Shown in pieces: positions 10,378-37,572 of a stretch of 64,000 nucleotides of DNA. The DNA comes from Candidatus Aminicenantes bacterium (GTDB lineage Bacteria; Acidobacteriota; Aminicenantia; Aminicenantales; UBA4085), in NCBI GenBank assembly GCA_003141555.1, contig PLMN01000028.1, forward strand, positions 2,785 through 66,784, written 5' to 3'. A program made the position numbers and the translations under genes. The notes beneath the pieces are model-generated. The model worked only from the letters and a program-made list of their open reading frames with translations, did not search any database and had not been told where the DNA came from. Numbering within the stretch: position 1 is the first letter of the stretch; each line of letters starts with the position of its first letter.

Positions 10378-10381
10378 GGGC

Positions 10382-12174: not shown

Positions 12175-12395
12175 TCCTTCCGTCCGGCCTTGGGCCGATA
12201 GAGATGATTCTCGTACACGCTCTGGACATCCTGAAGGTCGGGCAGGATCCGGAGCCGCATCTCCTCGATCTCCCGGACCTCGCGCTCGGCGAGCAGGCCG
12301 TCCTTGATGCGGGCGGCGATCCGCGCTTCGATCTCCCTCTCCAGGCGTTCCACCTCGTCATCCCCGAGGCTCGGGATCTTCAGAAAGTCGGTCAT
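12171..12395 (-). CDS. Small hypothetical protein (74 aa), charged and helical
   Basis: ORF with ATGA overlap to the downstream gene. MTDFLKIPSLGDDEVERLEREIEARIAARIKDG... No recognisable family. Confidence 0.35.
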   Translation of the reverse strand: MTDFLKIPSLGDDEVERLEREIEARIAARIKDGLLAEREVREIEEMRLRILPDLQDVQSVYENHLYRPKAGRKE

Positions 12396-12418
12396 GGCAT
12401 TCCCTCCGTCCTCCGGAC

Positions 12419-14428: not shown

Positions 14429-14561
14429 CTTCAACGCGCCGCACTCCAAGCCGGGGTCAGGTCTTAACATTTAACATGGCGGAGCCGGGTCTCATCGCTC
14501 GACATTTGTGAAGTGTTAAGACCCGCCCCCCCAGGGGAGTATTGAGACCCGACCCTCTTAT

Positions 14562-16571: not shown

Positions 16572-17117
16572 CTATTTCGTTCCGGCCGGTTTCCCATACT
16601 TGAACAGGTCTCCGGCCCGGAAGATATCATACTGCACGCCGCCCATCGGGTCGAGGGCGAACACCGCCGGCCGGGTAAGGTTCCCCCCCTTTCCCGTCCG
16701 GACGTCGAACCGGACGACGTCGCCGCTCGCGAGCTTCCTCTGCGCGAGCAGGCGGTCGAGATCGAGGATTTTCAGGACGGGCAGGCCCGAATTGACCGCG
16801 TTCCGGAAATAGATCGCCGAATAGGACGGAGCGAGGATCGCCCCGACCTTGAGGGCGATGAAGCAGTCGACGGCTTGCTGGCGCGAGGAGCCCGCGCCGA
16901 AATTGCGGCCGGCGACGATGATGTCGCCCGGCGCGCACTTCCCGGGAAAATCCGTCCAGCCCTCCAGGTTCCCGAAGGCGAGGGGACCCATCTGGGCGAT
17001 ATCGGAGATGGCCAGGTGGGCGTTGTGGAAGATCTGGTCGGTGTCGATGTCCTCGATGATCCGGCCCGCCGCGTCGAGCAGCACCCAGAGCCGGCCTTGG
17101 CGGATGTCGGTGTCCAT
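16572..17117 (-). CDS. leuD: 3-isopropylmalate dehydratase small subunit (LeuD-type, aconitase family), set 1
   Basis: 181 aa. ...DIDTDQIFHNAHL...GDIIVAGRNFGAGSSRQQA... swivel-domain motifs. Immediately downstream of leuC. Confidence 0.8.
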   Translation of the reverse strand: MDTDIRQGRLWVLLDAAGRIIEDIDTDQIFHNAHLAISDIAQMGPLAFGNLEGWTDFPGKCAPGDIIVAGRNFGAGSSRQQAVDCFIALKVGAILAPSYSAIYFRNAVNSGLPVLKILDLDRLLAQRKLASGDVVRFDVRTGKGGNLTRPAVFALDPMGGVQYDIFRAGDLFKYGKPAGTK

Positions 17118-17118
17118 G

Positions 17119-18321
17119 TTACAGGTCCTCCGGACCGCGGATTTCGCCGGCCACGCACGACGCGGCGGCGACCGCCGGGCCGGCCAGATAAGTCTTGCCC
17201 TTGCCCTGCTTACCCGGGAAGTTCCGGTTCCCGGTGCTGATTTGCGTTTCGCCCTTGCCGGTCAGCCCGGCGTGGCCCTCGGCGCAGCCGCCGCAGCCCG
17301 GGTTGATGACGATCGCCCCGCTCCGGAACAGGGTCTCCAGGATGCCGCGCTCGAGGATCTCCTCGTAGACGCGCCGCGTGGCGGGCACCACCTTCAGCAT
17401 AACGCCCGGCTTGACCTTGCGGCCGCGCAGCACCTCGGCCGCCCGGGCGAGGTCCTCGGTCCGGCCGTTGGTGCACGAGCCGATGAAGCCCGAGTCGATC
17501 TTGATGCCCTTGACCCCGGCCAGGGGTTTGACCGTGTTCGGCGAGGGCGGAACCGCGACCTGGGGCGGGAGGCCGGTGACGTCCACCTCGACGACGGCCG
17601 TGTAGGCGGCGCCGAGGTCGGCCGCCAAGCCGCCCTCCCGGGAGACGAAGCCGATGATCCCGGCCATCTCGGTGATCATGCTGCAGAGCGTGATCCGTCC
17701 GGCGGGCGAGAGCGCTTCCGCCGCGGGCCCGGAGAACTCGGCCGAGCGGAGGGCGATCTTCTTCGTCCCGAGCTCCCGGCAGAGGAAGAGAGTCAGGTCT
17801 TTCGCCCCGGCTTGGGCCGAGGGAGTTCCCTTGAGCACGACCTTGACGCTCTCCGGGACTTCGAACCAAGCCCTGCCCGTCTTGAAGGCGAAGGCGATGT
17901 CTACGTCTCCCATCCCCTGCCCGAAGCATTCCACGGCCCCGAGGATGTTGAGGTGGCTGTCCGTGCCGACCACGGTCGTGCCGGGAGCGGCCAGACCTTC
18001 CTCGATCATGACGTGCGAGCCGATGCCCGCGTCCACGTCATATACCCTGATCCCGTGCTTGCGGGCGAAGTCGCGGCAGAGCTGCTGGTTGTCGGCATAC
18101 TTCAGAGAACAGGCCGGCGCGCAGAGGTCGAAGGTGAAGAAAGTCTTGCGAGCGTCGGCCGGCGATTCGCCCGGGTACTCGCGCTCAAAATTCTTGACGA
18201 CATTCGCCCCGCCGAAGTCGCGGGCGGAGCGGACGTCCAGATCCATCCAGACGATCCGGCCGGGCGCGACTTCGTCGGGCGAGTGCGACTGGATGATCTT
18301 TTCGATGATCGTCTTGGCCAC
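17119..18321 (-). CDS. leuC: 3-isopropylmalate dehydratase large subunit (type II/archaeal-type LeuC), set 1
   Basis: About 400 aa from GTG 18321..18319 (VAKTIIEKIIQSHS, matching LeuC N-termini). The listed 532-aa ORF has a 132-aa Arg/Gly-rich artifact extension. Fe-S ligand cysteines present (GSCTNGR). Confidence 0.8.
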   Translation of the reverse strand: MAKTIIEKIIQSHSPDEVAPGRIVWMDLDVRSARDFGGANVVKNFEREYPGESPADARKTFFTFDLCAPACSLKYADNQQLCRDFARKHGIRVYDVDAGIGSHVMIEEGLAAPGTTVVGTDSHLNILGAVECFGQGMGDVDIAFAFKTGRAWFEVPESVKVVLKGTPSAQAGAKDLTLFLCRELGTKKIALRSAEFSGPAAEALSPAGRITLCSMITEMAGIIGFVSREGGLAADLGAAYTAVVEVDVTGLPPQVAVPPSPNTVKPLAGVKGIKIDSGFIGSCTNGRTEDLARAAEVLRGRKVKPGVMLKVVPATRRVYEEILERGILETLFRSGAIVINPGCGGCAEGHAGLTGKGETQISTGNRNFPGKQGKGKTYLAGPAVAAASCVAGEIRGPEDL

Positions 18322-18335
18322 GGCGCGGCCCCCGC

Positions 18336-19451
18336 TTAGAGCTTGGCCGCCACGGCGGCGCCCATGTCGAGCGTCGTGGCGGCGCCGCCCATGTCGTAGG
18401 TCCGGACCTTGCCTTCCTTGATGACCTCGGCTACCGCCCCCTCGAGCGCGCGGGCCTTGTCCTTCTCGCCCAGCCACTCGAGCATCAGGACCGCGGCCAG
18501 GAACGTAGCCAGGGGGTTGACCTTGTAGAGGCCGGCGTATTTGGGGGCGGAGCCGTGGGTCGGCTCGAAGACGGCGTATTTGTCGCCGATGTTGCCCGCC
18601 GAGGCGAAGCCCAACCCGCCCACGAGCTGGGCAGCCAGGTCGGAGATGATGTCGCCGAACAGGTTCTCGGCCACCAGGACGTCGTAGTCCTGGGGGTTCT
18701 TGACGAGCCACATGCACATGGCGTCGATGTTGGCCTCCTTCATGGGGATGTCGGGGAACTGTTTGGCGATCTCGCGCGAAACGCTCAGCATCAGGCCGCC
18801 GGTCTCGCGGAGGACGTTGGGCTTTTCGACGATGGTCACGGACCGGCGCCCGGCCTTGCGGGCGTATTCGAAGGCCGCCCGGACAATGCGCTCGCAGCCC
18901 TTGCGGGTCATGATCCGGGTCGAGAGGGCGATCTCGTTCAGGGGGACATCCTTAAAGGCCTTCATCTTGGGGTGGATCATCAGCGCGTCCTTGACGGACT
19001 GCGGCAGCGGGAAGAATTCGACGCCGGCATACATTCCCTCGGTGTTCTCCCGGAAGATGACCAGGTCGATGTTGTCCCGATAATTCAGGGGATTTCCCGG
19101 ATAAGCCTTGCAGGGTCGGAGATTCGTATAGAGGTCGAACTCCTGGCGGAGTCGGACGATGGGGCTGAAGTAGGACAGGCCCTTGCTCTGGAGCGCGGGG
19201 GCGAGCTCCCGGTCCGCGTCGGCCCTGGGCTTGGATGTGATCGCCCCGAACAGGCAGCAATCGGTCTCCTTCAGGAGCTTGATCGTCCGATCCGGAAGGG
19301 CATTGCCCTCTTTGCACCAATATTGCCAGCCGATATCGCCGTATGTGTACACGGCGTCGACGGACAGCTTCTTGAGGACGGCCATGGCCGCTTCCACCAC
19401 TTCGATTCCGACGCCGTCGCCGGGCAGAACTGCGATCTTGTATTTCGCCAT
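18336..19451 (-). CDS. leuB: Isopropylmalate/isocitrate dehydrogenase-family decarboxylating dehydrogenase (LeuB-like)
   Basis: 371 aa. MAKYKIAVLPGDGVGIEV... and SPIVRLRQEFDLYTNLRP beta-decarboxylating dehydrogenase signature. Exact substrate (3-IPM vs isocitrate/homoisocitrate) cannot be decided from sequence alone. Confidence 0.75.
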   Translation of the reverse strand: MAKYKIAVLPGDGVGIEVVEAAMAVLKKLSVDAVYTYGDIGWQYWCKEGNALPDRTIKLLKETDCCLFGAITSKPRADADRELAPALQSKGLSYFSPIVRLRQEFDLYTNLRPCKAYPGNPLNYRDNIDLVIFRENTEGMYAGVEFFPLPQSVKDALMIHPKMKAFKDVPLNEIALSTRIMTRKGCERIVRAAFEYARKAGRRSVTIVEKPNVLRETGGLMLSVSREIAKQFPDIPMKEANIDAMCMWLVKNPQDYDVLVAENLFGDIISDLAAQLVGGLGFASAGNIGDKYAVFEPTHGSAPKYAGLYKVNPLATFLAAVLMLEWLGEKDKARALEGAVAEVIKEGKVRTYDMGGAATTLDMGAAVAAKL

Positions 19452-19611
19452 GATGGGCTCCTTTTGGTATTGAAAGGGAAGACTATTTTATCCGCAGGGC
19501 CGAGTGCGGTCAACCTTATCTGAGGCTCAAGTTGACATTGCATCATCAGATTATCCGGCATTTCGAGTCACTGAGATAATAGTTCTAAAAATAGCGCTGC
19601 AATTCGTTGAC

Positions 19612-19653
19612 TTGACAAATCCACATCACTGCTCTATCTTCGTAGAGCAGTGA
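19612..19653 (+). promoter_or_regulatory. Putative promoter (TTGACA-N17-TATCTT) overlapping a perfect 11-bp inverted repeat operator TCACTGCTCTA-N5-TAGAGCAGTGA
   Basis: TTGACA at 19612-19617. The palindrome arms at 19627-19637 and 19643-19653 overlap the GTG start of the GntR gene. This is a typical YtrA-type autoregulatory operator. Confidence 0.45.
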
Positions 19654-20078
19654 TTAGATCCAATAAAATTCTGAATTTCAAAGTTGACGCCAAATCGGCT
19701 ATCCCGGCCTACGAGCAGATTAAACGTGCCATCAAACTGGCCATCGTCTCTGGTTACTTGGAGGAAGGAGACCAACTCATGTCTCTCCGGGAGCTCGCCC
19801 TGAAGCTCACCGTCAATCCCAACACTATAATCAAGGTTTATGACCAACTCGAGACAGAGGATTTCATCTATTCCAAGCCGGGGGCAGGCTATTACGTCAA
19901 GGTTGATCACGCCAGAATCCTACCGAGAAGACGCGATCTTTTTCAAGAAATCACTGAGGAATATATTTCGAAAGCTCTGCAACTTGGATACTCCGGCGAA
20001 GACATGTCCAAAGAAATTTCCCAATTAACTGGCGAGAACATGTTGATTCGGGACAGAAAGGATAAATCTGATGATTGA
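19650..20078 (+). CDS. GntR-family transcriptional regulator, YtrA subfamily
   Basis: 142 aa. Winged-HTH SAIPAYEQIKRAIKLAIVSGYLEEGDQLMSLRELALKLTVNPNTIIKVY and a short C-terminus. Sits upstream of an ABC ATPase/permease. Confidence 0.75.
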   Translation: MIRSNKILNFKVDAKSAIPAYEQIKRAIKLAIVSGYLEEGDQLMSLRELALKLTVNPNTIIKVYDQLETEDFIYSKPGAGYYVKVDHARILPRRRDLFQEITEEYISKALQLGYSGEDMSKEISQLTGENMLIRDRKDKSDD

Positions 20079-20895
20079 ATTAGACGAGGTGTCGTTCAAC
20101 TATGGTAAGAAAATGGTCTTTAAAAACTTCAACCTCCGGATACCCCATGGTCAGGTCTGCCTAATTACCGGAATTAATGGTGTGGGGAAAAGCACGTTGT
20201 TGCGATTGATAGCGGGGGTGCTAAGACCGGCTAAAGGAGAGATCCGGTTTGATCCAGATATGGGAGTTGATCCCAGAGCTAAAATAGGGTTCATCTCAGA
20301 TGCCTTGAGCCTTTATGATAGCCTGACGATCACGCAGGCCATCGATTTCCACAAGTCCGTCTATACCCTTCCTTCATTTGATGATTCCTTAATCCGGCAC
20401 ACTAAAATTGGCCGCGACCAGAAGATTAAAGAGTTATCTACAGGACAACGCACCATATTCCACCTGAGCTTAGTTCTTTCCATCGAACCCGAGATTCTGT
20501 TGATCGATGAGATCATCCATTCTATTGATGCCTATTTGCGAAAAATCTTTCTAGAACAGATTGTCCAACTCTTAATAAAACGATCCGTTACCGTAGTCAT
20601 GGTTAACGTTAACTTCCATGATATCGAACACCTGGTGGAAAGGGTGATTCTGTTGAAGTCCGGTAAGATCGCTGTTGATGAAAAAATTGAAGAGCTCAAG
20701 ACCAAGATCAAGAAGATCATTTCCGGGAACCGCCCGGAATTCATGAATATTCTCTCACAAATCGATTATTCAGACCATTCAGAGTTTTACGTATACCCCT
20801 ATATGGACGATCTCAAAGAGAAAATCGACGGCGAAATTGTTGATCTGAATTTAACGGAGATCGTTTCGGCCTTCATCGGAGGCGAATATGCTTAA
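20071..20895 (+). CDS. ABC transporter ATP-binding protein
   Basis: Walker A GINGVGKSTLL, degenerate signature LSTGQRT, Walker B LLIDEI. Low GC. Confidence 0.8.
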   Translation: MIELDEVSFNYGKKMVFKNFNLRIPHGQVCLITGINGVGKSTLLRLIAGVLRPAKGEIRFDPDMGVDPRAKIGFISDALSLYDSLTITQAIDFHKSVYTLPSFDDSLIRHTKIGRDQKIKELSTGQRTIFHLSLVLSIEPEILLIDEIIHSIDAYLRKIFLEQIVQLLIKRSVTVVMVNVNFHDIEHLVERVILLKSGKIAVDEKIEELKTKIKKIISGNRPEFMNILSQIDYSDHSEFYVYPYMDDLKEKIDGEIVDLNLTEIVSAFIGGEYA

Positions 20896-21616
20896 GAAGG
20901 AATGCTTCGAGGCCATAAAGAAACTCCTCGAATCACTGCTTATCTTGGTTGTTATTCCCCTGGCGATTGTATGGGACAAGCTCGTTGCCCATAGCGGCTG
21001 GCCGTATGCGGATGTTTTCCAAGCAGGATGTATTGCGACACTGGTCATCTATGCCATTTATGCAGGGGCGACGATATTTCAGCCCGAGAGAAAAGATAAG
21101 GCATTTGAATATTTGTTTTCATTACCGCTGACCCGCTCTCGAATCGTTATGGCGAAGGTGTTGCCGCGATTCGTCATTCTCGAGATGCTTTTTCTGCTTT
21201 CGGTGGTACTCATCGGGCCTGGGGTTCTGGCCTCTGGAATAATTTTCATCTTACTTTTCTTTGGGGCCGTTTCTCTAAGCATCGCGGTAAACTCCGTCAT
21301 TCTTAATCTTATCGGAGTATCCTTTATATTTGGCGCTTTCCAGCCGTGCTGTAATATTATGTCCTTTCTTCTTGGGAAGCTCGGCGTGAATTTTCCCAAC
21401 GATTTAGCTTTCATATGCGTACAGATATGCGCTGCGTTGATCCTATTAGTTCCTTTATGGTTGGCGTTCTGGCTGACATTTAAGAAACTGGATGTCAGGC
21501 CCATAAGGCTACAGATGAATACTTACTATTTCATTCTATTACCGAGCTTGGCCGGTCTCGTCGCTTTCATCCTTTTATTTTACAGAAAAGCCATGTATTG
21601 GATCATGGCCCGATAA
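20888..21616 (+). CDS. ABC-2-type permease / polytopic membrane protein
   Basis: 242 aa, about 6 hydrophobic segments, translationally coupled to the ATPase. No soluble domains. Confidence 0.5.
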   Translation: MLKKECFEAIKKLLESLLILVVIPLAIVWDKLVAHSGWPYADVFQAGCIATLVIYAIYAGATIFQPERKDKAFEYLFSLPLTRSRIVMAKVLPRFVILEMLFLLSVVLIGPGVLASGIIFILLFFGAVSLSIAVNSVILNLIGVSFIFGAFQPCCNIMSFLLGKLGVNFPNDLAFICVQICAALILLVPLWLAFWLTFKKLDVRPIRLQMNTYYFILLPSLAGLVAFILLFYRKAMYWIMAR

Positions 21617-21631
21617 GTGATCATTAAGAAA

Positions 21632-21889
21632 TCAGCGATAGACTTTCCCCCGCGGCCGGATCCGGATGACGAGGACAATCAATTCCCGGTCGGAAAACGT
21701 GTAGATGACCCGATAATCGCCGCTTCGAAAACTCCAGAGCAGACCGTCTTTTCCCTTGAGCGGCTTCCCACCGCGAGGATCCGCTAAGAGCTTCTCCCGG
21801 ATTTCCTTAAGGATGCGCCGGGAGACATCCTGCCCGAGTCTTTTGAGGTCCTTCTTGACGCTCTTTTTGAAGAAAAGCCGATAGGTCAT
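21632..21889 (-). CDS. RelE/ParE-family type II toxin
   Basis: 85 aa. MTYRLFFKKSVKKDLKRLGQDVSRRILKEIREKL...DYRVIYTFSDRELIVLVIRIRPRGKVY is the typical RelE/ParE fold signature. Confidence 0.75.
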   Translation of the reverse strand: MTYRLFFKKSVKKDLKRLGQDVSRRILKEIREKLLADPRGGKPLKGKDGLLWSFRSGDYRVIYTFSDRELIVLVIRIRPRGKVYR

Positions 21890-22125
21890 CAGATATCCCA
21901 GCCGAGCTCGGCCAGAAATTCCGTCTCGCTAAGGATCTCGTCCTGCGCATCCTTCAGCCGCTCGACGGCGATCTGGTAGTCCGCCCAGGTCTCGAGATAT
22001 ATTTCGAGCGCATCCCGGACGATTTCGTTCGTATTGCGTTTCCGCGCCTCGGCGATTTCCTCGATCGAGGCGACCATTTTCATCGGCAGCCGCGCGGAGA
22101 TGGTCTTGGTCACTTGTTTTCCCAT
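21889..22125 (-). CDS. RHH-type antitoxin (CopG/ParD-like)
   Basis: 78 aa. MGKQVTKTISARLPMKMVASIEEIA... ribbon-helix-helix N-terminus. Overlaps the toxin start by 1 nt. Confidence 0.6.
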   Translation of the reverse strand: MGKQVTKTISARLPMKMVASIEEIAEARKRNTNEIVRDALEIYLETWADYQIAVERLKDAQDEILSETEFLAELGWDI

Positions 22126-22148
22126 GGAGACATCCTTGATTGTTTACA

Positions 22149-22167
22149 TTGTTTGCATTGCAAACAA
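22149..22167 (-). promoter_or_regulatory. Perfect 19-bp palindrome TTGTTTGCA-T-TGCAAACAA upstream of the antitoxin; putative toxin-antitoxin operator
   Basis: Located about 25 nt upstream of the antitoxin start. Preceded by the partial repeat TGTTTACATTG. Confidence 0.4.
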
Positions 22168-22371
22168 TATCCTAGAAAACCGGCTTCGTCAAGGATGTTT
22201 TTATGCGGAAATCGGTGACACGATCCCAATTCAAGAGAATTGGGTCATGTCACCGAATTCCGCAAATCGCCGATTTCACTCCCGTCCTTTCTTAGGTTTC
22301 TCAACCTTAGAAAGGACGCGTGATCATAATGGCAAATCTCAGTAAAGCGCGGAGGCGCGCCCGCCGCCGAC

Positions 22372-22860
22372 CTATTTCTTCTCGAGCTTCTTCTTCGTCC
22401 ATTCGATCAGGCCGCCGGCCTCCAAGATGCCCAGGACCGACGCGGGCAGCGGCGGGAAGCTGAAGACGCGCCCCTTGGCCAGGATCCGGCCGCCGGCGAA
22501 GTCGATCTCGGCCTCGTCGCCCGCCGCGAGCGCGTCCGCCGCCTCCTCGCATTGGATCACGGGCAGGCCGAGGTTGATCGCGTTCCGGAAGTAGATTCGG
22601 GCGAACGACTTGGCCACGACCGCCTGCACGCCCGCCGCACGCAAGCAGGCCGCGGCCTGCTCCCGAGAGCTCCCGCAGCCGAAATTCTTGCCGGCGAGGA
22701 TGATGTCGCCCGGTTTGACGCCTTTGGCGAAAGCCGGGTCGAGGTCCTCGAGGGCCTTGGCCGCCATCTCCTCGGGCTTCAGCTGCTGGTAAGTGTACTT
22801 GCCGGCGTAGATGACGTCGGTGTTGACGTTGTCCCCGTATTTCCAGATCTTGCCTTTCAT
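22372..22860 (-). CDS. LeuD-type aconitase-family small subunit, set 2
   Basis: 162 aa from ATG 22860 (MKGKIWKYGDNVNTDVIYAGKY...GKNFGCGSSREQA). The listed 436-aa ORF is a read-through artifact. ATGA overlap with the upstream LeuC-type gene. Confidence 0.8.
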   Translation of the reverse strand: MKGKIWKYGDNVNTDVIYAGKYTYQQLKPEEMAAKALEDLDPAFAKGVKPGDIILAGKNFGCGSSREQAAACLRAAGVQAVVAKSFARIYFRNAINLGLPVIQCEEAADALAAGDEAEIDFAGGRILAKGRVFSFPPLPASVLGILEAGGLIEWTKKKLEKK

Positions 22861-24113
22861 CGCACGTAGCTCCTGGGGTCGGTGATCTTTCCCTCGATGG
22901 CGGAGGCCGCGACCGTAGCCGGCGAAGCGAGGTAAATCTCGGAGTCTCGGCCGCCCATCCGCCCCTTGAAATTGCGGTTGGACGTGCCGACCACGATTTC
23001 TCCCGGCGCAAGGATGCCCTCGTGCGCGCCCAGGCACGGGCCGCATCCGGGATTGACCATCACGCAGTTGGCTTCGAGGAAGATCTCGATCAGGCCCTTG
23101 CGCACGGCCGCGAGATAGACTTCGCGCGAGGCCGGCAGGACGAGCGTCCGGATATTGGGATGGACCTTGCGGCCCTTGAGGATCGCGGCCGCGACCTCGA
23201 GGTCCTCGAGCCGTCCGTTGGTGCACGTCCCGATCAAGGCCTGGTGGAAGGGCTTGCCGGCCACGGCCGACACGGGCTTGACGTTGTCGACCGAATGAGG
23301 GCAGGCGATCATGGGCTCGAGCGCCGAGAGGTCGTATTTCAGCACGGCCTCGTAGGCCGCATCGGGATCCGATTTCAGGACGACATAGGGTCCCTTCGCC
23401 CGCTCCTTGAGCCAGGCGAGCGTCTTGTCGTCGACCTCGAAGTACCCGTTCTTGGCGCCCATTTCGGCGGCCATATTGCATAGGACCATGCGCGAGGCGA
23501 GGCTGAACTCCCCCGCCGCCGGCCCGGCGAACTCCACCGCTTCGTAGTTCGCCCGGTCCGCGCCTTGGTCGCCCAAAATCTTGAGGATCGCGTCCTTGGC
23601 GTAGACCCCGGCCGGGAACCGGCCGCTGAACTCGATCCGGAGCGTCTCGGGCACGCGCAGCCAGATTTCGTCCGTGGCCCACAGGCTGGCCGTCTCGGTC
23701 CGGCCGATGCCGGCGGAGAACGCTCCGAAGGCGCCGTAGGTGGTGGTGTGGGAGTCGCTGCCCATGATCACCGCGCCCGGCAGGGCAAAACTCGCCTCGG
23801 AGAAGACCTGGTGGCAGACCCCGGCGTGGATGTCGAAGAAGTGCGGAATCCTCTGCTCCGCCACGAACTCCCGGATCGTCTTGTGGTTCTGGGCGTACTT
23901 CTCGTCGGCCGCCGGGACGATATGGTCCAGGACAATGACGATCTTCTGCGGCGCGACGACTTTCTTCAGGCCCAGCTTCTTGAACTCGCCGATGATAGCC
24001 GAGGAGTTGTCGTGGGACAGATAGTAGTCCGGCGAGACGGTGATCACCTCGCCCGCCCGCACCGGCCGGCCGGCCTTGCGGCCCAGCGCTTTCTCCGAGA
24101 ATGTCAAACCCAT
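22857..24113 (-). CDS. LeuC-type aconitase-family large subunit (type II), set 2
   Basis: 418 aa. MGLTFSEKALGRKAGRPVRAGEVITVSPDYYLSHD..., Fe-S ligands GTCTNGR and MGSDSHTTTYGAFGAF. Paralog of set 1. Confidence 0.85.
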   Translation of the reverse strand: MGLTFSEKALGRKAGRPVRAGEVITVSPDYYLSHDNSSAIIGEFKKLGLKKVVAPQKIVIVLDHIVPAADEKYAQNHKTIREFVAEQRIPHFFDIHAGVCHQVFSEASFALPGAVIMGSDSHTTTYGAFGAFSAGIGRTETASLWATDEIWLRVPETLRIEFSGRFPAGVYAKDAILKILGDQGADRANYEAVEFAGPAAGEFSLASRMVLCNMAAEMGAKNGYFEVDDKTLAWLKERAKGPYVVLKSDPDAAYEAVLKYDLSALEPMIACPHSVDNVKPVSAVAGKPFHQALIGTCTNGRLEDLEVAAAILKGRKVHPNIRTLVLPASREVYLAAVRKGLIEIFLEANCVMVNPGCGPCLGAHEGILAPGEIVVGTSNRNFKGRMGGRDSEIYLASPATVAASAIEGKITDPRSYVR

Positions 24114-24126
24114 CCGATCCCCCTTC

Positions 24127-24669
24127 TTATTCCTTGAAGATGTCGAAGTTGACGAAGTCGGCGTGGTTGATGATGATCGCCTCGATCGTCCGCTTCAGCC
24201 CGTCGCCCTCCTTGGAGTGGGCGGCGATCATATGAACGACGTCCTGGGGCAGGTCGTATTTGTAGGCGAAGGCCGCGCCCGAGATGGGGTGGCGCAGCAG
24301 CTCGCCCTCGCGGCTCTTTTGGAAGACCCCCTGCTCGCGCTTGAACTCGAAGAGCTTGCCCACGTCGTGGAGGATCGCCCCCGACAGGAGCAAATCGCGC
24401 TGGATCGCGATCTTCCCGGCGTAGGACGTGCCCAACGCCTCGGCGATCTGGAGCGCCGTCCGGGTGACGGCCCGGGTGTGGTCAATGAGGCTGATGTCGG
24501 TCTTCTTGATGAGCAGGGTGAAGGGCATCTTCTCCAGATCCGCGGCCGTCCAGCCTCCCTTGCGGGCGGCTTCGACCCAGACCGTCAGCGTCTGTTCGCG
24601 GAGCTTGGCGTCGCCGATCAGCCCGATCTCGGGAATGAGCTTCAGAAATTCGTCCCGCTCGTCCTTCAT
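24127..24669 (-). CDS. HD-domain metal-dependent phosphohydrolase-like protein
   Basis: 180 aa. H..HD..D pattern (IDHTRAV, ILHDVGK, INHAD). Embedded in the operon between the CS-like gene and the LeuC-type gene. Confidence 0.6.
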   Translation of the reverse strand: MKDERDEFLKLIPEIGLIGDAKLREQTLTVWVEAARKGGWTAADLEKMPFTLLIKKTDISLIDHTRAVTRTALQIAEALGTSYAGKIAIQRDLLLSGAILHDVGKLFEFKREQGVFQKSREGELLRHPISGAAFAYKYDLPQDVVHMIAAHSKEGDGLKRTIEAIIINHADFVNFDIFKE

Positions 24670-25445
24670 GGCAGCTTCCTTTCGGGAGGACCGTCGTATT
24701 CGAAATCCTCCGGGTCGATTTTGCGCATGGGCTTCATCCGCGTCTTCTCCTCGTGGACATGGGCCACCAGGCCCGGCACGCGGGAGATGATAAAGAAGGC
24801 GTTCCCGATCTCGGGCGGGATGCCGAGGTCGCAGAGGAGGGCGGCGATCGCCCCGTCGACGTTGATCGGCAGCGTCTTGCCGCCGGCCTGCTCGGCCAGG
24901 GCGGCTTCCACCCCGCGTGCGATCCGGACGAACCGGCCGGACAAATGGAGCTCCTCGGCCAGGGCGAACAGCTTGGCCGTGCGTGGATCCCGAGTGTGGA
25001 TCCTGTGGCCGAAGCCCGAGGCGCGCTTGCCCTTGGCCTTCATCTCGTCGAGCACGGCCTTGATGGCCGCGGGCTCGCCGGCCGCCTCCGGGGCGCGCTT
25101 GGCGATCTCGAGGAACAGGCGCTGGCCGTCCTCGATAGCCCCGCCGTGGAAGCGGTTGATGGCCAGGACGCCGGCCGCGACCGCCGCGTTGAGCTCGGCC
25201 CCGGTCGAAGCGACCGTCCGGGCGGCGAGCACGGACGGAGGGCTCGCCCCGTGGTCGATCGACGAGACGAAGATGGCATCGACGAGCCGTCCGACTTCGG
25301 CCGAGGGAAATTCCCCCTTAAGAGCGAGGTAGATGGCCTGGGCGAAGGAGATCCTGCCCATCAAATCGGCGATGGGGTAGCCGCGCAGGACGATCCTGTT
25401 CGGCTTGATCTCCGTGATCCCGGTCTTCCATTTTTCTTCGGGCAT
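24666..25445 (-). CDS. Small citrate-synthase-family protein, citryl-CoA lyase (CCL)/ATP-citrate-lyase C-domain-like
   Basis: 259 aa. SIDHGASPPSVLAARTVASTG (DHG active-site region as in ACL/CCL) and GFGHRIHTRDPR (citrate-synthase His-Arg signature region). The short, stand-alone form matches CCL rather than a full citrate synthase. Confidence 0.7.
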   Translation of the reverse strand: MPEEKWKTGITEIKPNRIVLRGYPIADLMGRISFAQAIYLALKGEFPSAEVGRLVDAIFVSSIDHGASPPSVLAARTVASTGAELNAAVAAGVLAINRFHGGAIEDGQRLFLEIAKRAPEAAGEPAAIKAVLDEMKAKGKRASGFGHRIHTRDPRTAKLFALAEELHLSGRFVRIARGVEAALAEQAGGKTLPINVDGAIAALLCDLGIPPEIGNAFFIISRVPGLVAHVHEEKTRMKPMRKIDPEDFEYDGPPERKLP

Positions 25446-25458
25446 CGGTCCCTCCGGT

Positions 25459-26352
25459 CTATTTCAGAATTTCCGCCGCTTTCGCCGGGATGTCGGCGAT
25501 CGCCTCGACGACATGCACGCCGACGTCGCGGAGCCGTGCGACCTTGCCGGCGTACGATCCGCGTCCTCCCTCGACGATCGCCCCGGCATGCGAGAAGCGC
25601 GTCCCCGACTTGGCTGCCTTGCCGCCGATATAGGCGATGAGCGGCTTGGTGAACTTCCCCGCGGCGATGAGATCAGCCACCCTCTCCTCCTGGGTCGTGC
25701 CGATCTCGCCGAACATGACCGCCGCCCGGGTCTGGTCGTCGCGCTCGAAAAGCTCCATGATTTCGGGATGGGACAGGCCGACGACGGCGTCCCCCCCGAC
25801 GTGGACGATGGTGCTCTGGCCGAAGCCGGCCCGGGTCAGGTAGTAGGAGATGGCCGAGGTCATCCCCCCGCTGCGGGAGCTGACGCCCAGGACGCCAGGC
25901 TTGAACCATTCCCGGGCGCGCTGGGCTCGGCCGCCGATCATGCCCAAGACCGCCTTCCCGGGGCTGAGCAGCCCAAGGGTGTTCGGGCCGACGAACCGCG
26001 CCCCCGTTTCGCGCGCCGCGCGGGCGATCTCGAGGACGTCGTAGATGGGAACCCGGTCGGGGACGATGACCAGCAGCTTGACGCCGGCGGCGATCGCCTC
26101 GAGCGCGGCGTTCTTGACGAGCGTCGCGGGGATGAAGATGACGCTGATGTCGATCGGGCCCCGCTTCTCGCGGGCCTCTTCGACGGAATCGTAGACCGGT
26201 ACGCCATAGACATCCTGGCCGCCGCGGCCCGGCGTCACGCCGGCCACGACGTTGGTCCCGTAGTCCTTCATGAGCTGGGTCCGGGCCATGCCTTCGCGGC
26301 CCGTGATCCCCTGGATGACGACCCTGGATTTTTCGTCGACGAGGATGGACAT
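25459..26352 (-). CDS. Succinyl-CoA synthetase alpha (SucD)-like CoA-binding subunit; putative citryl-CoA synthetase small subunit
   Basis: 297 aa from ATG 26352 (MSILVDEKSRVVIQGITGREG...VAGVTPGRGG), collinear with SucD. Phosphohistidine region present. Start lies 4 nt after the upstream gene stop. Confidence 0.8.
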   Translation of the reverse strand: MSILVDEKSRVVIQGITGREGMARTQLMKDYGTNVVAGVTPGRGGQDVYGVPVYDSVEEAREKRGPIDISVIFIPATLVKNAALEAIAAGVKLLVIVPDRVPIYDVLEIARAARETGARFVGPNTLGLLSPGKAVLGMIGGRAQRAREWFKPGVLGVSSRSGGMTSAISYYLTRAGFGQSTIVHVGGDAVVGLSHPEIMELFERDDQTRAAVMFGEIGTTQEERVADLIAAGKFTKPLIAYIGGKAAKSGTRFSHAGAIVEGGRGSYAGKVARLRDVGVHVVEAIADIPAKAAEILK

Positions 26353-26356
26353 GGCC

Positions 26357-27916
26357 TCAGCCCTCCCTTTCCCGCAGCCCGGCCCGATATTCGGCAAGGC
26401 CCGGGATGGGCAGCTGGATGTCGATGGCCGCCTTCTCATGGAATCGGCAGAAGATCTCGCAGGCCAGGCACTCGGTGCACTTCCCCTTCCTGGCCTCCTC
26501 GGGGGTGATCGCCAGGGCCGGCCGGCCGTCATCGAGCTTGAGGATCTTCGGGGCGCAGGCTTCGATGCAGCCCTTGGTAGCGCAGGAGGCGCACCGCTCG
26601 CGATCGATGGACAGCTTCCCGGTCAGGGTGTCAAACGCATAGGCGCCCTCGGCGGGCTTGAATGCCGCGAGGGGCTTGACCTCGTGCCGCACTTCTCCGC
26701 CCTCGCGGATCAGCTGCTCGAGGCGGGCCGCGCAGGCCTCGGGAGAGTCGTCGCGGCCGTAGCCTTCGACTTTGCCCGGCAAGCCGCGGCCGTAGGTTCC
26801 CAGGATGCGGATGGCCTCCTCCTCGCAGTTGCCGCCGAGGCGGATGACCGCCGGAATGGCGAGCCTCTCCTCGACGAAGGCCTTGACCATGCCCCGCGCC
26901 GAGTGGAACTGTTCCTGGCTCGCAACGCCCGAGCCCGAGGCGAAGTAGCCGCGGATGCCGGGCTGGGAGAGGATGATCCGGGCTGCCCGGTAGACCTTGC
27001 TCGCGGGCGGGTTGCCGCTCGTGTCGCAGAAGTTGGCCAGCTTGAAGCCCCGGGCGAGCACCGCGTCCATGGACATCATCGAGCCGCCGCCGCCCGCGCC
27101 GTGGAAGCCGATGACCCGGTCGTCCGGGCCGATCGCGTCCGTCATCTGGAAGAAGTAGAACGTCCCGCGGTAGTCCTTCTCCTCGACCTTGTAGGCGATC
27201 TTCTCGAGCTCGGTCGGCGGCCGGTCGAATTCGCGGGCGACCTCGATCCCGAGCTCGGGATGCCGGAAGACGGCGTAATCGTCCACGACGAGGTGGCAGT
27301 CGGCGGCGAAGACCGCATCGTCCGCCGTCAGGACGAGCGGATTGACTTCCGCCGACCGGGCGTCCTTGGAGCGGGCGACCTTATAGAGCTTGGTCAGGAG
27401 CTCGGCGGTCTGGAGCATGATCCCGCCGGAAAGCCCGGTCCGCCGAACGAGGTTGCGGGCTTCGAACTCGCGCAGGCCGGTCCCGACGTCGATCGGCCAG
27501 GTGGCGATCTTCTCGGGGTGAAGCTTGGCGATCGCCTCGACGCCAGTTCCCCCCACGGCGCTGAAGATGAGGACGGGGCACTTCCGGGCGTCGTCCATCA
27601 CCAGGCCGGCGAAGAACTCGGCCTTCACCGCGAGCTTCTCTTCGACCAGGATGCGGTCGACCGTGAAATGCCCGACTTTCATCCCGATCAGCCGCCCGGC
27701 CTTTTCTTCGGCCTCGGCGGCCGTGTCGGCAAACTGGATCCCCCCGAGGCCAGCCCGACCCGTGAGCCAGACCTGGATCTTGAGGACGACCGGCCGTCCG
27801 ATCCTGCGGGCGATGTCTCCGGCTTCGGCCGCCGAGAAGGCGACCTCTCCCTCGGGGACGCGGATGCCGCCTTCCCGGAGGAGCTTCTTGCTCTGATACT
27901 CGTACAGTCTAGCCAC
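26357..27916 (-). CDS. SucC-like ATP-grasp CoA-ligase beta subunit (putative citryl-CoA synthetase large subunit) fused to a C-terminal 2x[4Fe-4S] ferredoxin domain
   Basis: About 519 aa from GTG 27916 (V-ARLYEYQSKKLLREGGIRV matches the SucC N-terminus, with RBS AAGGAAGG 5 nt upstream). The C-terminal ~120 aa carry CASCATKGCIEACAP and CTECLACEIFC cluster motifs. The listed 734-aa ORF has a 215-aa artifact extension. Confidence 0.7.
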   Translation of the reverse strand: MARLYEYQSKKLLREGGIRVPEGEVAFSAAEAGDIARRIGRPVVLKIQVWLTGRAGLGGIQFADTAAEAEEKAGRLIGMKVGHFTVDRILVEEKLAVKAEFFAGLVMDDARKCPVLIFSAVGGTGVEAIAKLHPEKIATWPIDVGTGLREFEARNLVRRTGLSGGIMLQTAELLTKLYKVARSKDARSAEVNPLVLTADDAVFAADCHLVVDDYAVFRHPELGIEVAREFDRPPTELEKIAYKVEEKDYRGTFYFFQMTDAIGPDDRVIGFHGAGGGGSMMSMDAVLARGFKLANFCDTSGNPPASKVYRAARIILSQPGIRGYFASGSGVASQEQFHSARGMVKAFVEERLAIPAVIRLGGNCEEEAIRILGTYGRGLPGKVEGYGRDDSPEACAARLEQLIREGGEVRHEVKPLAAFKPAEGAYAFDTLTGKLSIDRERCASCATKGCIEACAPKILKLDDGRPALAITPEEARKGKCTECLACEIFCRFHEKAAIDIQLPIPGLAEYRAGLREREG

Positions 27917-27993
27917 CAGGACCTTCCTTGTTGCAGATTCGAGGGCGTGAGAAAAGTCTAGTATACCCAAACGCCGAGGCGAAAAAAAGGGGG

Positions 27994-29025
27994 CTATACC
28001 CCCCGCAAAGCCGCGTTCCGAGCCCGTTCGATGAGCCGCCGGATGTGAGCGGGCGGGGTATCCGGGGTCAGGGCGCAGCCGGCATTGACGACCAGCCGGG
28101 GAGAGTCCCGGAACACGTCGAGCAGCCCGTCCACCGCGTCCGCGACGCGCTCGGGCGGCCCGTTGCGGAGAACCCCCGCCGGGTCGATGTTGCCGAACAG
28201 GGTCAGTCGATCGCCGCAGGCGTCGCGGGCCGCCCGGGTCGGCGTGAGGCTGTCCAGCTCGAGGGCATCGGCCCCCGTGGAGGCCATGTCGGGCAGGATG
28301 AGGGAGGCGTCCCCGCAGATGTGGAGCAGGTACGGAAGGCCGAGCTCGTGGGACGCGGCCGCCAGCGCCCGCTCGTAGGGAAGGGCGAACGTCCGGTACA
28401 TGGCCTGAGAGATCATCGACGGCCCCGCCGGGCTGTCGCCGTTCGAAAGCATGTCGACTCCCGAGGCCGCTACGAGCCGCAGGAAGGCGAGGCAAGCGTC
28501 GGCGCAGTAATCGAGCAGCCGGAACGGCCCCTCGCCGCCTTCCACCAGGTCCATGAGCCAATCGGCCGGCGAGCGCATCATGCCCGCCAGAGAGAACGGC
28601 GCTTGATCACAGTTGCCGCGGACGAAAACCGCCGGCCCGAAATGGGCCTTGACCAGGCGGCAGGTCTCGACCCAGACGGCGATCCGCGGGTCGGCGGCGA
28701 GGTCGGGAGGGGGAAGATCGCGGACGGCCTCGAGGCGCAGGATCCGGGGACGGACGACGAGCGCCGGCTCGTCCTCCGGAAAATCGAGGCCGACGCCCAG
28801 CGCGCCGGCGAGAGTCGCCGTATCGAAGTCGATCAGGACGCCGTCGAGGCCGTAGCGCTCGGTCGCGTCAATGAAAGCCCGGGCCGCTTTCGCCGGGCTC
28901 TCCCGGAACTGCCGCATGGTCAATCCCGCTTCCCGGGCGGCCGACCGGAAATTGTGGAGGAGGACGGGCCGGCGGTCGGGCCAGCGGCCTTCGAGAGCGG
29001 CGCGGATGCGTTCGAATCCCGTCAT
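27994..29025 (-). CDS. Uroporphyrinogen decarboxylase (URO-D) family protein; possibly a methyltransferase-like member
   Basis: About 343 aa from MTGFERIRAALEGRWPDRRPV, with a URO-D/MtaA-like TIM-barrel layout. Assignment is by family resemblance only. Confidence 0.6.
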   Translation of the reverse strand: MTGFERIRAALEGRWPDRRPVLLHNFRSAAREAGLTMRQFRESPAKAARAFIDATERYGLDGVLIDFDTATLAGALGVGLDFPEDEPALVVRPRILRLEAVRDLPPPDLAADPRIAVWVETCRLVKAHFGPAVFVRGNCDQAPFSLAGMMRSPADWLMDLVEGGEGPFRLLDYCADACLAFLRLVAASGVDMLSNGDSPAGPSMISQAMYRTFALPYERALAAASHELGLPYLLHICGDASLILPDMASTGADALELDSLTPTRAARDACGDRLTLFGNIDPAGVLRNGPPERVADAVDGLLDVFRDSPRLVVNAGCALTPDTPPAHIRRLIERARNAALRGV

Positions 29026-35968: not shown

Positions 35969-36454
35969 ATGGAAAAAAGCGCGATTTACCCGGGTTCCTT
36001 CGACCCCATCACGAATGGGCACGAAGATATCATCCGACGCGGCGCCAATTTGTTCCCCCGGATCGTCGTCGCCGTGCTCGAAAACCCGCGCAAGGAAACT
36101 CTTTTCTCCACCGCCGAACGCATTGATATCATCCGCGAGATTTTCAAGGATATTCCAGCCATCGAGGTCAAGGCCTTTCACGGTTTACTGGTGGATTTCG
36201 CCCGGGACAACGGCATTCGGATCCTCATCCGGGGGTTGCGCGCCGTTTCGGACTTCGAGTATGAATTCCAGATGGCCCTGATGAACCTGAACCTCAACGC
36301 CGAAATCGAAACGCTGTTCATGATGCCCAGCGCGAAATACGCCTTCCTCAGCTCGAGCCTGGTCAAAGAGGTCTACCGCCTCGGCGGATCGGTCGAAGGC
36401 CTGGTGGCGCCCTACGTCGAGAGCCGTCTCCGTGAGAAATTCCGGAGGGGATGA
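35969..36454 (+). CDS. coaD: Phosphopantetheine adenylyltransferase
   Basis: MEKSAIYPGSFDPITNGHEDII contains the nucleotidyltransferase H/TxGH motif. 161 aa. Confidence 0.9.
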   Translation: MEKSAIYPGSFDPITNGHEDIIRRGANLFPRIVVAVLENPRKETLFSTAERIDIIREIFKDIPAIEVKAFHGLLVDFARDNGIRILIRGLRAVSDFEYEFQMALMNLNLNAEIETLFMMPSAKYAFLSSSLVKEVYRLGGSVEGLVAPYVESRLREKFRRG

Positions 36455-36488
36455 GAGTCATATCCATGAAGCGAAGGACGGTCGGGCG

Positions 36489-37568: not shown

Positions 37569-37572
37569 TCCC

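Follow-up and report, generated by a model that had tools for sequence, protein, structure and literature searches.

Which acid is made or split by a run of six minus-strand genes in a Candidatus Aminicenantes genome, and which enzymes work alongside them? The run occupies positions 22372-27916 of a 64,000-nucleotide stretch of contig PLMN01000028.1 (assembly GCA_003141555.1), referred to here as the window, and it joins a synthetase and lyase of the citryl-CoA type to a LeuCD-type member of the aconitase family. An earlier, sequence-only reading of the same DNA took the run for a citrate/isocitrate module of the reductive tricarboxylic acid (TCA) cycle and added the hedge "or a citrate analog". 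Our analysis suggests, with a probability that we put at roughly 50%, that the module interconverts acetyl-CoA plus 2-oxoglutarate and 2-oxoadipate via homocitrate, with a thioester route replacing the LeuA-type synthase. The hedge came closest to this outcome, but homocitrate was not among the analogs it named. With somewhat less assurance, we propose that bacteria possess a widespread, undescribed system in which a CoA or acyl carrier protein (ACP) thioester serves to make or split homocitrate, with CitF- or CitDEF-like alternatives, enzymes bearing Lys4 and Lys12 motifs, and an obligatory HD-domain partner.

A conserved nine-gene unit in Aminicenantes

The spacings within the run are +4, +13, −4, +13, and −4 nt in the open reading frame (ORF) listing and translation, confirming the tight coupling (gaps or overlaps of 13 nt or less) described by the sequence-only reading. 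The first gene, g1 (26357-27916, 519 aa), starts with GTG behind a AAGGAAGG Shine-Dalgarno sequence, and its product, the SucC/CcsA-like large subunit of an ADP-forming acyl-CoA synthetase, carries a ferredoxin-like domain at its C-terminal end; g2 (25459-26352, 297 aa) encodes the SucD-like small subunit (alpha, CoA binding, phosphohistidine). They are followed by g3 (24666-25445, 259 aa), a citryl-CoA-lyase-like, short lyase of the citrate-synthase family, and g4 (24127-24669, 180 aa), a small HD/HDIG-domain protein. The last two genes are g5 (22857-24113, 418 aa), a LeuC-type large subunit of an aconitase-family hydro-lyase of the archaeal isopropylmalate isomerase/homoaconitase (IPMI/HACN) type, and g6 (22372-22860, 162 aa), a LeuD-type small subunit with the specificity loop GKYTYQ at 22786-22803. 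Pfam assigns ATP-grasp_2 to g1, CoA_binding/Ligase_CoA to g2, the citrate-synthase C-terminal domain to g3, HD to g4, Aconitase to g5, and Aconitase_C to g6; together with NCBIfam, these matches bear out the family calls made from the sequence alone.

Public assemblies contain a 100% identical g1, and its nearest named relatives are Candidatus Aminicenantes metagenome-assembled genomes (MAGs). An alignment of the HD protein was scanned against one genome per species, yielding 146 relatives; the best 80 of these were examined and assigned to Aminicenantes/Acidobacteriota by label or, where the MAG label was evidently wrong, by identity and synteny. In tblastn searches with the window proteins, g1–g6 were collinear in every one of the approximately 80 Aminicenantes species loci that were long enough. 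In most related loci, g6 is directly followed by a beta-decarboxylating dehydrogenase (Iso_dh), a second LeuC (LeuC1), and a second LeuD (LeuD1); in the example of L006, g6 ends at 10213, Iso_dh spans 10286-11398, LeuC1 starts at 11415, and LeuD1 starts at 12619. The ancestral unit therefore comprised nine genes.

The three additional genes are also present on the minus strand of the window: Iso_dh at 18336-19451 (371 aa); LeuC1, a more divergent aconitase-family large subunit, at 17119-18321 (400 aa); and LeuD1 at 16572-17117 (181 aa). A low-GC block (19500-22340, GC 0.42-0.54 versus approximately 0.66 in the flanks) that is absent from most relatives is an insertion splitting the ancestral cluster between g6 and Iso_dh. 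The sequence-only reading had seen that a gene of the isocitrate/isopropylmalate dehydrogenase family follows once the insertion is passed; this was correct but understated, as Iso_dh belongs to the nine-gene unit. The g1–g6 order reappeared in metagenome loci, where the HD protein was counted in 41 of 41, the citryl-CoA-synthetase-like (CCS) subunits in 25 of 25, the isomerase in 31 of 32, and Iso_dh in 20 of 23; LeuC1, with LeuD1, was present in 14 of 16 Aminicenantes-like loci.

Iso_dh and g6 carry substrate motifs of fungal lysine-pathway enzymes

Iso_dh reaches no NCBIfam equivalog: all isocitrate dehydrogenase (IDH) and leuB models are missed, and the best match is the homoisocitrate dehydrogenase (HICDH) AksF2, in a model set that contains no fungal-type HICDH. 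The substrate helix of Iso_dh, FSPIVRLR (19146-19166), has SPIVxLR in common with the helix YSSPIVALRK of the Schizosaccharomyces pombe HICDH (PDB: 3ty3). Bona fide IDHs have R-S-x-N-V-x-L-R, whereas Iso_dh has S-P-I, with Ile replacing Asn115 of the IDH Ser113-x-Asn115 motif. Where Iso_dh has Ile-Val, Thermus HICDH has Ile-Arg; Miyazaki and co-workers reportedly found that this Ile-Arg85 pair allows isocitrate use, which is abolished by R85V, a mimic of the yeast HICDH. The sequence xSPIVRLR was present in 45 of 45 motif matches among the loci fetched up to that point, and the SPIV helix recurs in Iso_dh proteins from Zixibacteria, Chloroflexota, Ignavibacteria, and the loci L091 and L174 described below. 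Within the module, Iso_dh orthologs from three other lineages are 63%–68% identical. An identity of Iso_dh as an IDH was considered and ruled out on the substrate helix (Asn to Ile).

The isomerase subunits g5 and g6 have the two-subunit architecture of the Methanocaldococcus jannaschii IPMI/citramalate isomerase (MJ0499/MJ1277) and homoaconitase (MJ1003/MJ1271), which are their closest solved structures; the best PDB match of g5 is MJ0499 (424 bits), and g6 scores 162 bits against an M. jannaschii structure. Only subfamily models are passed by g5 (NF001614 at 554 bits and hacA_fam at 528 bits), and g6 matches LEUD_arch at 183 bits. The LEU2 and leud equivalogs are missed (g5, 457 versus 610.65; g6, 173.7 versus 245.85), as are the HacA/HacB equivalog cut-offs and, for g5, the aconitate hydratase model PRK07229 (320.9 versus a cut-off of 612). 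Unlike the M. jannaschii enzymes, the pair has no leucine-pathway context, and its g6 loop, GKYTYQ, matches neither YLVY of IPMI nor YLRT of the methanogen HACN. The listed Aminicenantes g6 loop types keep YTY, and an x-T-Y loop is also found in a split Chloroflexota protein (GKYTYT) and in fused proteins of different descent that occupy the same slot (FTYK and LTYR).

The loop GKYTYQ is identical to that of fungal homoaconitase fragments, which carry GKYTYQD or GKYTYKD (for example, a Coemansia "mitochondrial Homoaconitase"). The query behind these matches was a segment that we take to be from yeast Lys4, and it also returned bacterial proteins named homoaconitase by NCBI. A fused, 644-aa protein that fills the same slot at L091 scores 755 bits on the NCBIfam homoaconitase equivalog TIGR00139 (cut-off 529.9) and only 370 on PRK07229 (cut-off 612). 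Because TIGR00139 is missed by g5/g6 and passed by the fused counterpart, we regard g5/g6 as homoaconitase-like by loop and context, not by descent.

The plainest account of the locus would be that nothing special is encoded: g1/g2 would be the succinyl-CoA synthetase (SCS) of the TCA cycle, g5/g6 would be a housekeeping LeuCD, and their adjacency would be a lineage-specific accident. The approximately 55% identity of g5/g6 to the M. jannaschii IPMI/citramalate isomerase and the JGI annotation of g1 homologs as SCS beta subunit speak for it, but we consider it highly improbable. Against it, g6 lacks the IPMI loop, neither leuA nor leuB is linked, the SucC/SucD cut-offs are not reached by g1 and g2, the SCS motifs GGGA and GGITRCD are replaced (see below), and the linkage is kept across several phyla with non-orthologous replacement of single parts. 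A motif search without a positive control found no linked LeuA-signature ORF in 175 sequences (2.2 Mb of flanks). We also considered g5/g6 as the housekeeping LeuCD with Iso_dh–LeuC1D1 as a LeuB–LeuCD set, since g5/g6 look more canonical than LeuC1D1; this was ruled out, as the IPMI loop is missing from both small subunits and as the Iso_dh orthologs still accompany the lyase module in phyla without LeuC1D1.

A second (de)hydratase argues for a split into half-reactions

LeuC1 scores 383 bits on NF001614, just under the cut-off of 385. The LeuD1 loop has the consensus HNA(H/F)LHIT(D/E) in nearly all relatives and is not an IPMI loop; the window LeuD1, with HNAHLAISD (17001-17027), is an outlier among related species. 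At L087, L089, L092, L093, L115, L133, L149, and L174, the second (de)hydratase slot is taken by a PrpD-like protein. Two precedents for a dedicated dehydratase are known. Fungal and Thermus homoaconitases interconvert homoaconitate and homoisocitrate only, and a second enzyme converts homocitrate to homoaconitate (PMC3556520); (2S,3S)-methylcitrate, a product of the citrate-synthase family, needs PrpD since aconitases cannot dehydrate it (PMC3556520).

That a single dehydrogenase is flanked by two aconitase-family pairs whose loops differ (YTY versus LHIT) would also suit iterative or promiscuous chain elongation, in which the same lyase, synthetase, and dehydrogenase act on two chain lengths (for example, oxaloacetate to 2-oxoglutarate to 2-oxoadipate), like AksADEF of methanogens. 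Each isomerase pair in Aminicenantes would then serve one chain length, not one half-reaction. The AksF2-type best match of Iso_dh and the presence of both citrate-like and homocitrate-like features favor this idea. Against it, PrpD-like proteins occupy the second slot outside Aminicenantes; these are dehydratases rather than isomerases, so the half-reaction split fits better than two chain lengths; the Ile-Val helix is, furthermore, associated with strict homoisocitrate use in yeast. Both the iterative scheme and its assignment of one pair to each chain length seem improbable to us.

The recurrence of PrpD-family proteins could instead indicate another citrate analogue, such as 2-methylcitrate, citramalate, a phosphonate analogue, or a further hydroxy-tricarboxylate, with the module working catabolically to split a CoA ester into acetyl-CoA and a 2-oxoacid. 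The CitE-like protein of L174 also resembles the itaconate-degradation lyase RipC, and the HD protein hints that a simple scheme lacks a step. However, 2-methylisocitrate is a tertiary alcohol and on chemical grounds cannot be a substrate of Iso_dh, the citramalate and IPMI loops (YLVY) are absent, and no methylisocitrate lyase or phosphoenolpyruvate mutase is consistently linked; such an analogue is decidedly improbable. The methylcitrate cycle itself was ruled out on the tertiary alcohol, and its PrpB is not linked.

The synthetase and lyase resemble citryl-CoA enzymes and appear distinct where they face the acid

The g1 protein matches ATP-grasp_2 at 3.5e-49, with a weak Citrate_bind match, and falls below the NCBIfam SucC cut-offs (236.6 versus 370; 232.9 versus 375.55); g2, with Pfam matches to CoA_binding, Ligase_CoA, and Succ_CoA_lig, likewise falls below those for SucD (290.9 versus 336; 291.2 versus 353.2). 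The SCS beta-subunit motifs NFLD(I/V)GGGA and NIFGGI(T/V)RCD are replaced in g1 by NFCDTSGNPPAS and FASGSGVASQEQ, and the D-YRG insert of proteins of the ATP-citrate lyase (ACL)/CCS type is present. An ordinary SucCD identity of g1/g2 was ruled out by these cut-offs and motifs. As a whole, g1 is nearest to the Thermus SCS beta subunit; its C-terminal, substrate-side domain taken alone finds its best match in CcsA of Hydrogenobacter thermophilus (PDB: 6hxq_B), with RPPTE, GGGGS, and GNPPAxKxY..IILSxPGIRG in common.

When 1.8 billion cluster representatives were searched and an alignment was made, three groups separated: canonical SCS (FLDIGGGA ... NIFGGITRCD), the ACL/CCS type (NYxEYSGNPP ... 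ANFT), and the clade of g1 (FCDTSGNPPASKVY ... SGVASQEQF), which has the D-YRG insert in common with the ACL/CCS group. Judged by these motifs and scores, the SucCD-like pair is placed in a clade allied to CCS and ACL and not with SCS. The sequence-only reading had argued that g1/g2 are not an ordinary SCS and had called for comparison with the H. thermophilus proteins; the cut-offs and the CcsA match agree with it, and g3 gave its best match to Ccl (see below).

In the register that we take for human ACLY, which does not come from a computed alignment, the g1 loop SGVASQEQ (26909-26932) occupies the position of the ACLY citrate-contact loop S343-T348 (SIANFT), where CcsA has GTANN. Equivalents of ACLY N346, T348, and R379 are absent from g1 in this register, with ASQE and RLGG instead (Leu at R379), and CcsA keeps A-N-N. 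Residues 343-348 and R379 are among the citrate contacts of human ACLY (PMC11365397).

The C-terminal tail of g1 was overlooked in the sequence-only reading. It forms a ferredoxin-like domain of the 2x[4Fe-4S] type (26438-26617, aa 434-493) with weak Fer4_9 and HgcB_ferredoxin matches and the cysteine motifs CASCATKGCIEAC (aa 442-454) and CTECLACEIFC (aa 480-490), which follow the pattern CxxCx4CxxxC ... CxxCxxCxxxC. The fusion, at 505-540 aa, is found in many phyla, and sister proteins of 405-425 aa lack the tail; it may act as a redox sensor or an electron-transfer module.

For g3, the best PDB match is the H. thermophilus citryl-CoA lyase (CCL; PDB: 6hxp; 214 bits, 47% identity), as expected from the earlier description of the 259-aa protein as CCL-like. 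In the alignment to 6hxp, g3 keeps the catalytic His (HGGA), His (GxGHR), and Asp (NxD) together with the substrate Arg residues. It passes the NCBIfam citryl-CoA lyase subfamily models NF004869 and NF004866 and misses the equivalog NF004864 (238.5 versus a cut-off of 261). Relative to the H. thermophilus enzyme, members of the g3 family lack one residue just ahead of the DPR arginine (GFGHR(I/L)HTx-DPRT) and two residues just ahead of the C-terminal arginine. These deletions lie beside substrate arginines, of the Arg329 and Arg421 types, and are kept in five lineages. From the alignments, g1, g2, and g3 thus appear CCS/CCL-like in architecture and distinct at positions predicted to face the acid substrate.

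These proteins also lend support to the main rival of a homocitrate module, namely one that works on citrate. Here g1/g2 and g3 would either cleave citrate with ATP, as in the reductive TCA cycle, or form citrate with a gain of ATP; g5/g6 together with LeuC1D1 or PrpD would be a split aconitase, and Iso_dh would be an isocitrate dehydrogenase. The whole would connect acetyl-CoA and oxaloacetate to 2-oxoglutarate, for example in glutamate synthesis by anaerobes that lack citrate synthase. The closeness of g3 to the H. thermophilus CCL, the subfamily models that it passes, and the CcsA-like C-terminal domain of g1 all favor citrate. On the other side stand the missing citrate-contact residues of g1 relative to ACLY/CcsA, an Iso_dh without the Asn115-type residue of IDHs and with the homoisocitrate-specific Ile-Val pair, and an isomerase loop that is the Lys4 loop, with fused same-slot proteins that fail the aconitate hydratase model and pass the homoaconitase model. 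We return to this rival, which we consider unlikely, after describing the module in other phyla.

The module recurs across phyla with interchangeable lyases

Proteins resembling g1 at 48%–55% identity and carrying the ferredoxin tail are source-labeled Spirochaetes, Gemmatimonadetes, Acidobacteria, Marinimicrobia, Calditrichaeota, Zixibacteria, Cloacimonetes, KSB1, Eremiobacterota, Vulcanimicrobiota, and Chloroflexota. In Zixibacteria (L088), the large (CCS-L) and small (CCS-S) synthetase subunits, CCL, an HD-like protein, and a fused 645-aa aconitase-family protein are accompanied by Iso_dh on the divergent strand. At L091, CCS-L, CCS-S, CCL, the HD-like protein, the fused 644-aa protein, and Iso_dh are all on one strand. 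Chloroflexota L089 has CCS-L, CCS-S, CCL, the HD-like protein, a split LeuC/LeuD pair, Iso_dh, and a PrpD-like protein, and L087 has CCS-L, CCS-S, CCL, HD, and a PrpD-like protein. The HD-like proteins of these loci are 41%–45% identical to g4.

A metagenome scan with a CCL-like alignment recovered the same core at L115, L136, and L171, and loci with CCL-HD-Iso_dh(-PrpD) and no CCS were found at L133, L134, and L149 by metagenome scan. Beside CCL-HD-Iso_dh-PrpD, L133 (5699-8758, minus strand) encodes a divergent CitF, a class I/II aminotransferase, and a TrmB-family regulator. An Ignavibacteriaceae locus reached from homoaconitase-like small domains (L092) contains Iso_dh ... HD, aconitase-family, and PrpD-like genes. 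At L174 (6486-15028), which was reached in the same way, HDIG-like, PrpD-like, Lys4-type aconitase-family, and Iso_dh proteins occur with a CitD-CitE fusion and CitF, both of which fall below the citrate-lyase cut-offs; several L174 genes are fragmented, probably by frameshifts in the long-read assembly.

The lyase slot exists in three non-orthologous forms: CCS+CCL, CitF+CCL (L133), and the CitDE fusion+CitF (L174). The invariant core is the HD-like protein, one particular Iso_dh, an aconitase-family hydratase and/or PrpD-like dehydratase, and a thioester-dependent C-C lyase. Conservation of this core across phyla rules out chance adjacency and supports a joint function of the LeuCD pair and the lyase genes; the claim that the pair is tied to them and not to leucine synthesis is upheld by this linkage and by the absence of the IPMI loop.

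Some lineages, at L160/L161 (7357-12660) and L169, carry only the CCS-L/CCS-S/CCL trio, followed by nitroreductase-family and UbiD-family decarboxylase genes, with no HD, isomerase, or Iso_dh gene; here the trio may serve another pathway.

In the literature searched, this gene order is nowhere described and CCS/CCL are not reported from Aminicenantes, Zixibacteria, and similar lineages, in line with the sequence-only reading, which was not aware of a description of the order. The term "homocitryl-CoA" was found in no paper, and the Caldithrix genome paper mentions no citrate enzymes. Orphan CCS/CCL genes in a Planctomycetes bin were reported in 2017 and read as reductive-TCA genes (PMC5459899). 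The cluster is common in metagenomes and represents unrecognized rather than rare biology.

The HD protein is a constant partner

The g4 protein contains an HD domain (Pfam, 4.4e-15) and has no close solved structure: a PDB profile search gave a marginal HD-GYP-like match (E = 0.013). Orthologs in Zixibacteria, Chloroflexota, and other lineages are 40%–47% identical and occupy the same slot, and H64, D102, H127, H146, H151, H169, and D171 are invariant in the ortholog alignment. The window g4 has LHDVGK (24355-24372); in many orthologs from outside Aminicenantes, the His of the HD dyad is changed to Ala (LLADVGK), which is unusual for a classical HD phosphohydrolase. The HD protein is a constant and obligatory partner in the module.

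A proposed homocitrate pathway and the evidence against it

In the proposed pathway, g3 would reversibly join acetyl-CoA and 2-oxoglutarate to give homocitryl-CoA, and g1/g2 would interconvert homocitryl-CoA, ADP, and Pi with homocitrate, CoA, and ATP; when homocitrate is formed, the energy of the thioester would be conserved as ATP. At about −8 kJ/mol, the ACL and CCS/CCL reactions lie near equilibrium (PMC13147460), so ATP-yielding synthesis and ATP-dependent cleavage would both be feasible. Homocitrate would be dehydrated to cis-homoaconitate by LeuC1/LeuD1, or by the PrpD-like dehydratase in other phyla, and cis-homoaconitate would be hydrated to homoisocitrate by g5/g6 with their Lys4-type loop. 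Iso_dh, with its Lys12-type helix, would then convert homoisocitrate to 2-oxoadipate by oxidative decarboxylation. In the CitF and CitDEF variants, the overall reaction would be that of an ATP-independent lyase. We infer every substrate, the stereochemistry, and the direction from families, motifs, synteny, and non-orthologous replacements, which are observed directly.

The need for a dedicated dehydratase may follow from the stereochemistry of the first step. Citrate synthase, ACL, and citrate lyase chemistry is pro-3S (NCBIfam names CitE "citrate (pro-3S)-lyase"), and the same geometry applied to 2-oxoglutarate would yield the enantiomer of classical (R)-homocitrate, which would require its own dehydratase, as in the methylcitrate cycle.

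Several points weigh against the homocitrate assignment. The substrate calls depend on motifs and context. The curated HICDH models are missed by Iso_dh (AksF2, 345 versus 540; iso_homocit_dh, 196 versus 680), which scores 246 bits against NAD-IDH structures and 187 bits against fungal HICDH. Overall, g5/g6 are nearest to the M. jannaschii IPMI and not to Lys4, and they miss the homoaconitase equivalog TIGR00139 (g5, 282; g6, 99; cut-off 529.9). Furthermore, g3 is 47% identical to a proven citryl-CoA lyase with all catalytic and Arg residues kept, and the proposed chemistry offers no role for the constant HD protein.

Nor do the surroundings point to lysine as an end product. No LysW-like ORF was detected in the 2.2 Mb of flanks, and no lysine riboswitch or other Rfam family (including T-box) was found in seven loci, so the lower alpha-aminoadipate pathway is not linked. 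Such a link had been considered and was set aside also because the gap between g6 and Iso_dh in variant loci holds only a GFO/IDH/MocA-like gene or a serine-dehydratase-like gene with one of the ornithine-cyclodeaminase (OCD) family; a riboswitch or T-box as a pointer to the end product was likewise dropped.

The citrate alternative gains from some of the same observations. The L133 CitF just passes the citrate-lyase alpha equivalog (517.8 versus 501.45), PrpD-type enzymes can also dehydrate citrate, and the near-equilibrium energetics given above apply to citrate as they stand. The order of lyase/synthase, aconitase-family, and Iso_dh genes mirrors citrate synthase/aconitase/IDH operons of anaerobes. 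Set against this, CitE and CitF of L174 fall below the citrate-lyase cut-offs, the close relatives are source-labeled Aminicenantes, and one metagenomic study predicts that an Aminicenantes mat member is a fermentative anaerobe. A citrate/isocitrate module of the reductive TCA cycle, as first read from the sequence, is thus disfavored by the fungal homoaconitase loop, the HICDH helix without the IDH Asn, and the lack of citrate contacts in g1. Reductive-TCA genes were sought in those parts of the window that are annotated (about 5-38 and 42-57 kb), and none was present.

Local features and neighboring genes

Directly upstream of g1 lies a gene resembling URO-D/MtaA-CmuA-family methyltransferases (27994-29025, minus strand), with scores below the family cut-offs; a terminator-like hairpin and T-run (27988-28004, minus strand; consensus match only) is placed between it and g1. 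In relatives, the slot upstream of g1 contains a DAO-family oxidase or is empty, and we therefore place the methyltransferase-like gene outside the module.

The low-GC insertion encodes, by Pfam, a GntR regulator (19650-20078), the ATPase (20071-20895) and permease (20888-21616) of an ABC-2 transporter, all on the plus strand, and a ParE toxin (21632-21889) with a ribbon-helix-helix (RHH) antitoxin (21889-22125) on the minus strand. At its edge, ahead of Iso_dh, is a sigma-70-like promoter match (19485-19513, minus strand; consensus match only).

Other genes stand between g6 and Iso_dh in some relatives. In two Aminicenantes species, L011/L001 (12354-14925) and L014 (12292-14861), the same strand carries a serine-dehydratase-like SDH_alpha gene (approximately 525 aa) there, together with an ornithine-cyclodeaminase/mu-crystallin-family gene; four other Aminicenantes species have a GFO/IDH/MocA-like oxidoreductase gene (approximately 416 aa) on the opposite strand. 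L013, L015, L019, L020, L031, L087, and others show Aminicenantes-type synteny with proteins 60%–75% identical, yet are labeled "uncultured Eubacteriales", "Clostridiales bacterium", or "Candidatus Desulfaltia", and one locus with bacterial-looking neighbors is labeled "Thermofilaceae archaeon". These odd MAG labels are probably taxonomic mislabels or the result of mis-binning.

Elsewhere in the window are a run of four GT4 glycosyltransferases with a sulfatase-family protein and a pilM-N-O-P-Q type IV pilus block (7083-14470 and 36432-41491), and a semialdehyde dehydrogenase-family gene with weak Pfam scores (50001-51029).

Discussion

The module joins two systems that are each of a known kind: a CCS/CCL-type lyase system and the upper alpha-aminoadipate pathway. 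Like CcsA/CcsB plus Ccl of H. thermophilus, it has SCS-like large and small subunits and a citrate-synthase-family lyase of approximately 260 aa, and the catalytic residues of Ccl and the C-terminal motifs RPPTE, GGGGS, and GNPPAxKxY of CcsA are kept. Unlike CcsA, however, g1 has an extra 2x[4Fe-4S] domain, is nearer overall to the Thermus SCS beta subunit, and has ASQE where CcsA and ACLY have AN(N/F)T; g3 departs from Ccl in the deletions next to two of the substrate arginines and in scoring below the Ccl equivalog cut-off. The partners here are homoaconitase-type and homoisocitrate-dehydrogenase-type enzymes and the HD protein, not reductive-TCA enzymes, and the source labels of the relatives together with the metagenomic study point to fermentative anaerobes, not autotrophs.

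With the upper alpha-aminoadipate pathway (Lys20/21, Aco2 plus Lys4, and Lys12), the module has in common the isomerase loop GKYTYQ, the dehydrogenase helix SPIVxLR, fused bacterial counterparts that pass the homoaconitase equivalog, and a second (de)hydratase, as in fungi and Thermus. It differs in that thioester-dependent lyase systems replace the LeuA-family homocitrate synthase, of which none is linked, in that no LysW-type or other lower-pathway genes are nearby, and in the added HD protein. The split g5/g6 pair is also of archaeal IPMI/HACN descent and does not belong to the fused Lys4 lineage.

Two further systems are related in part. As in citrate lyase CitDEF, CitF or a CitD-CitE fusion with CitF replaces CCS/CCL in some lineages, but the L174 homologs do not reach the citrate-lyase cut-offs. 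As in the methylcitrate cycle (PrpC/PrpD/aconitase), a PrpD-like dehydratase is paired with an aconitase-family hydratase (PMC3556520), but the module ends in a beta-decarboxylating dehydrogenase, not in methylisocitrate lyase. Aminicenantes differ from systems with CitDEF and PrpD in using CCS/CCL and a second LeuCD-type pair.

If the homocitrate assignment is correct, the module would add a new reaction class to the citrate-synthase/ATP-citrate-lyase superfamily, on a C7 substrate and possibly with conservation of ATP, and 2-oxoacid chain elongation would have a second, non-homologous way of carrying out its first step. Enzymes of uncultured anaerobic bacteria would then also bear the motifs by which fungal Lys4 and Lys12 recognize their substrates. 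Should citrate be the substrate, the combination, in fermenters, of a CCS fused to a ferredoxin-like domain, a split "aconitase", and an unusual IDH would still constitute a new variant of the TCA cycle. Under either assignment, the conserved HD protein marks a pathway step or control point. CCS and CCL homologs have been scored as markers of the reductive TCA cycle (PMC9802188); their use in this way risks false calls of autotrophy in heterotrophic Aminicenantes, Zixibacteria, Chloroflexota, KSB1, and Calditrichota.

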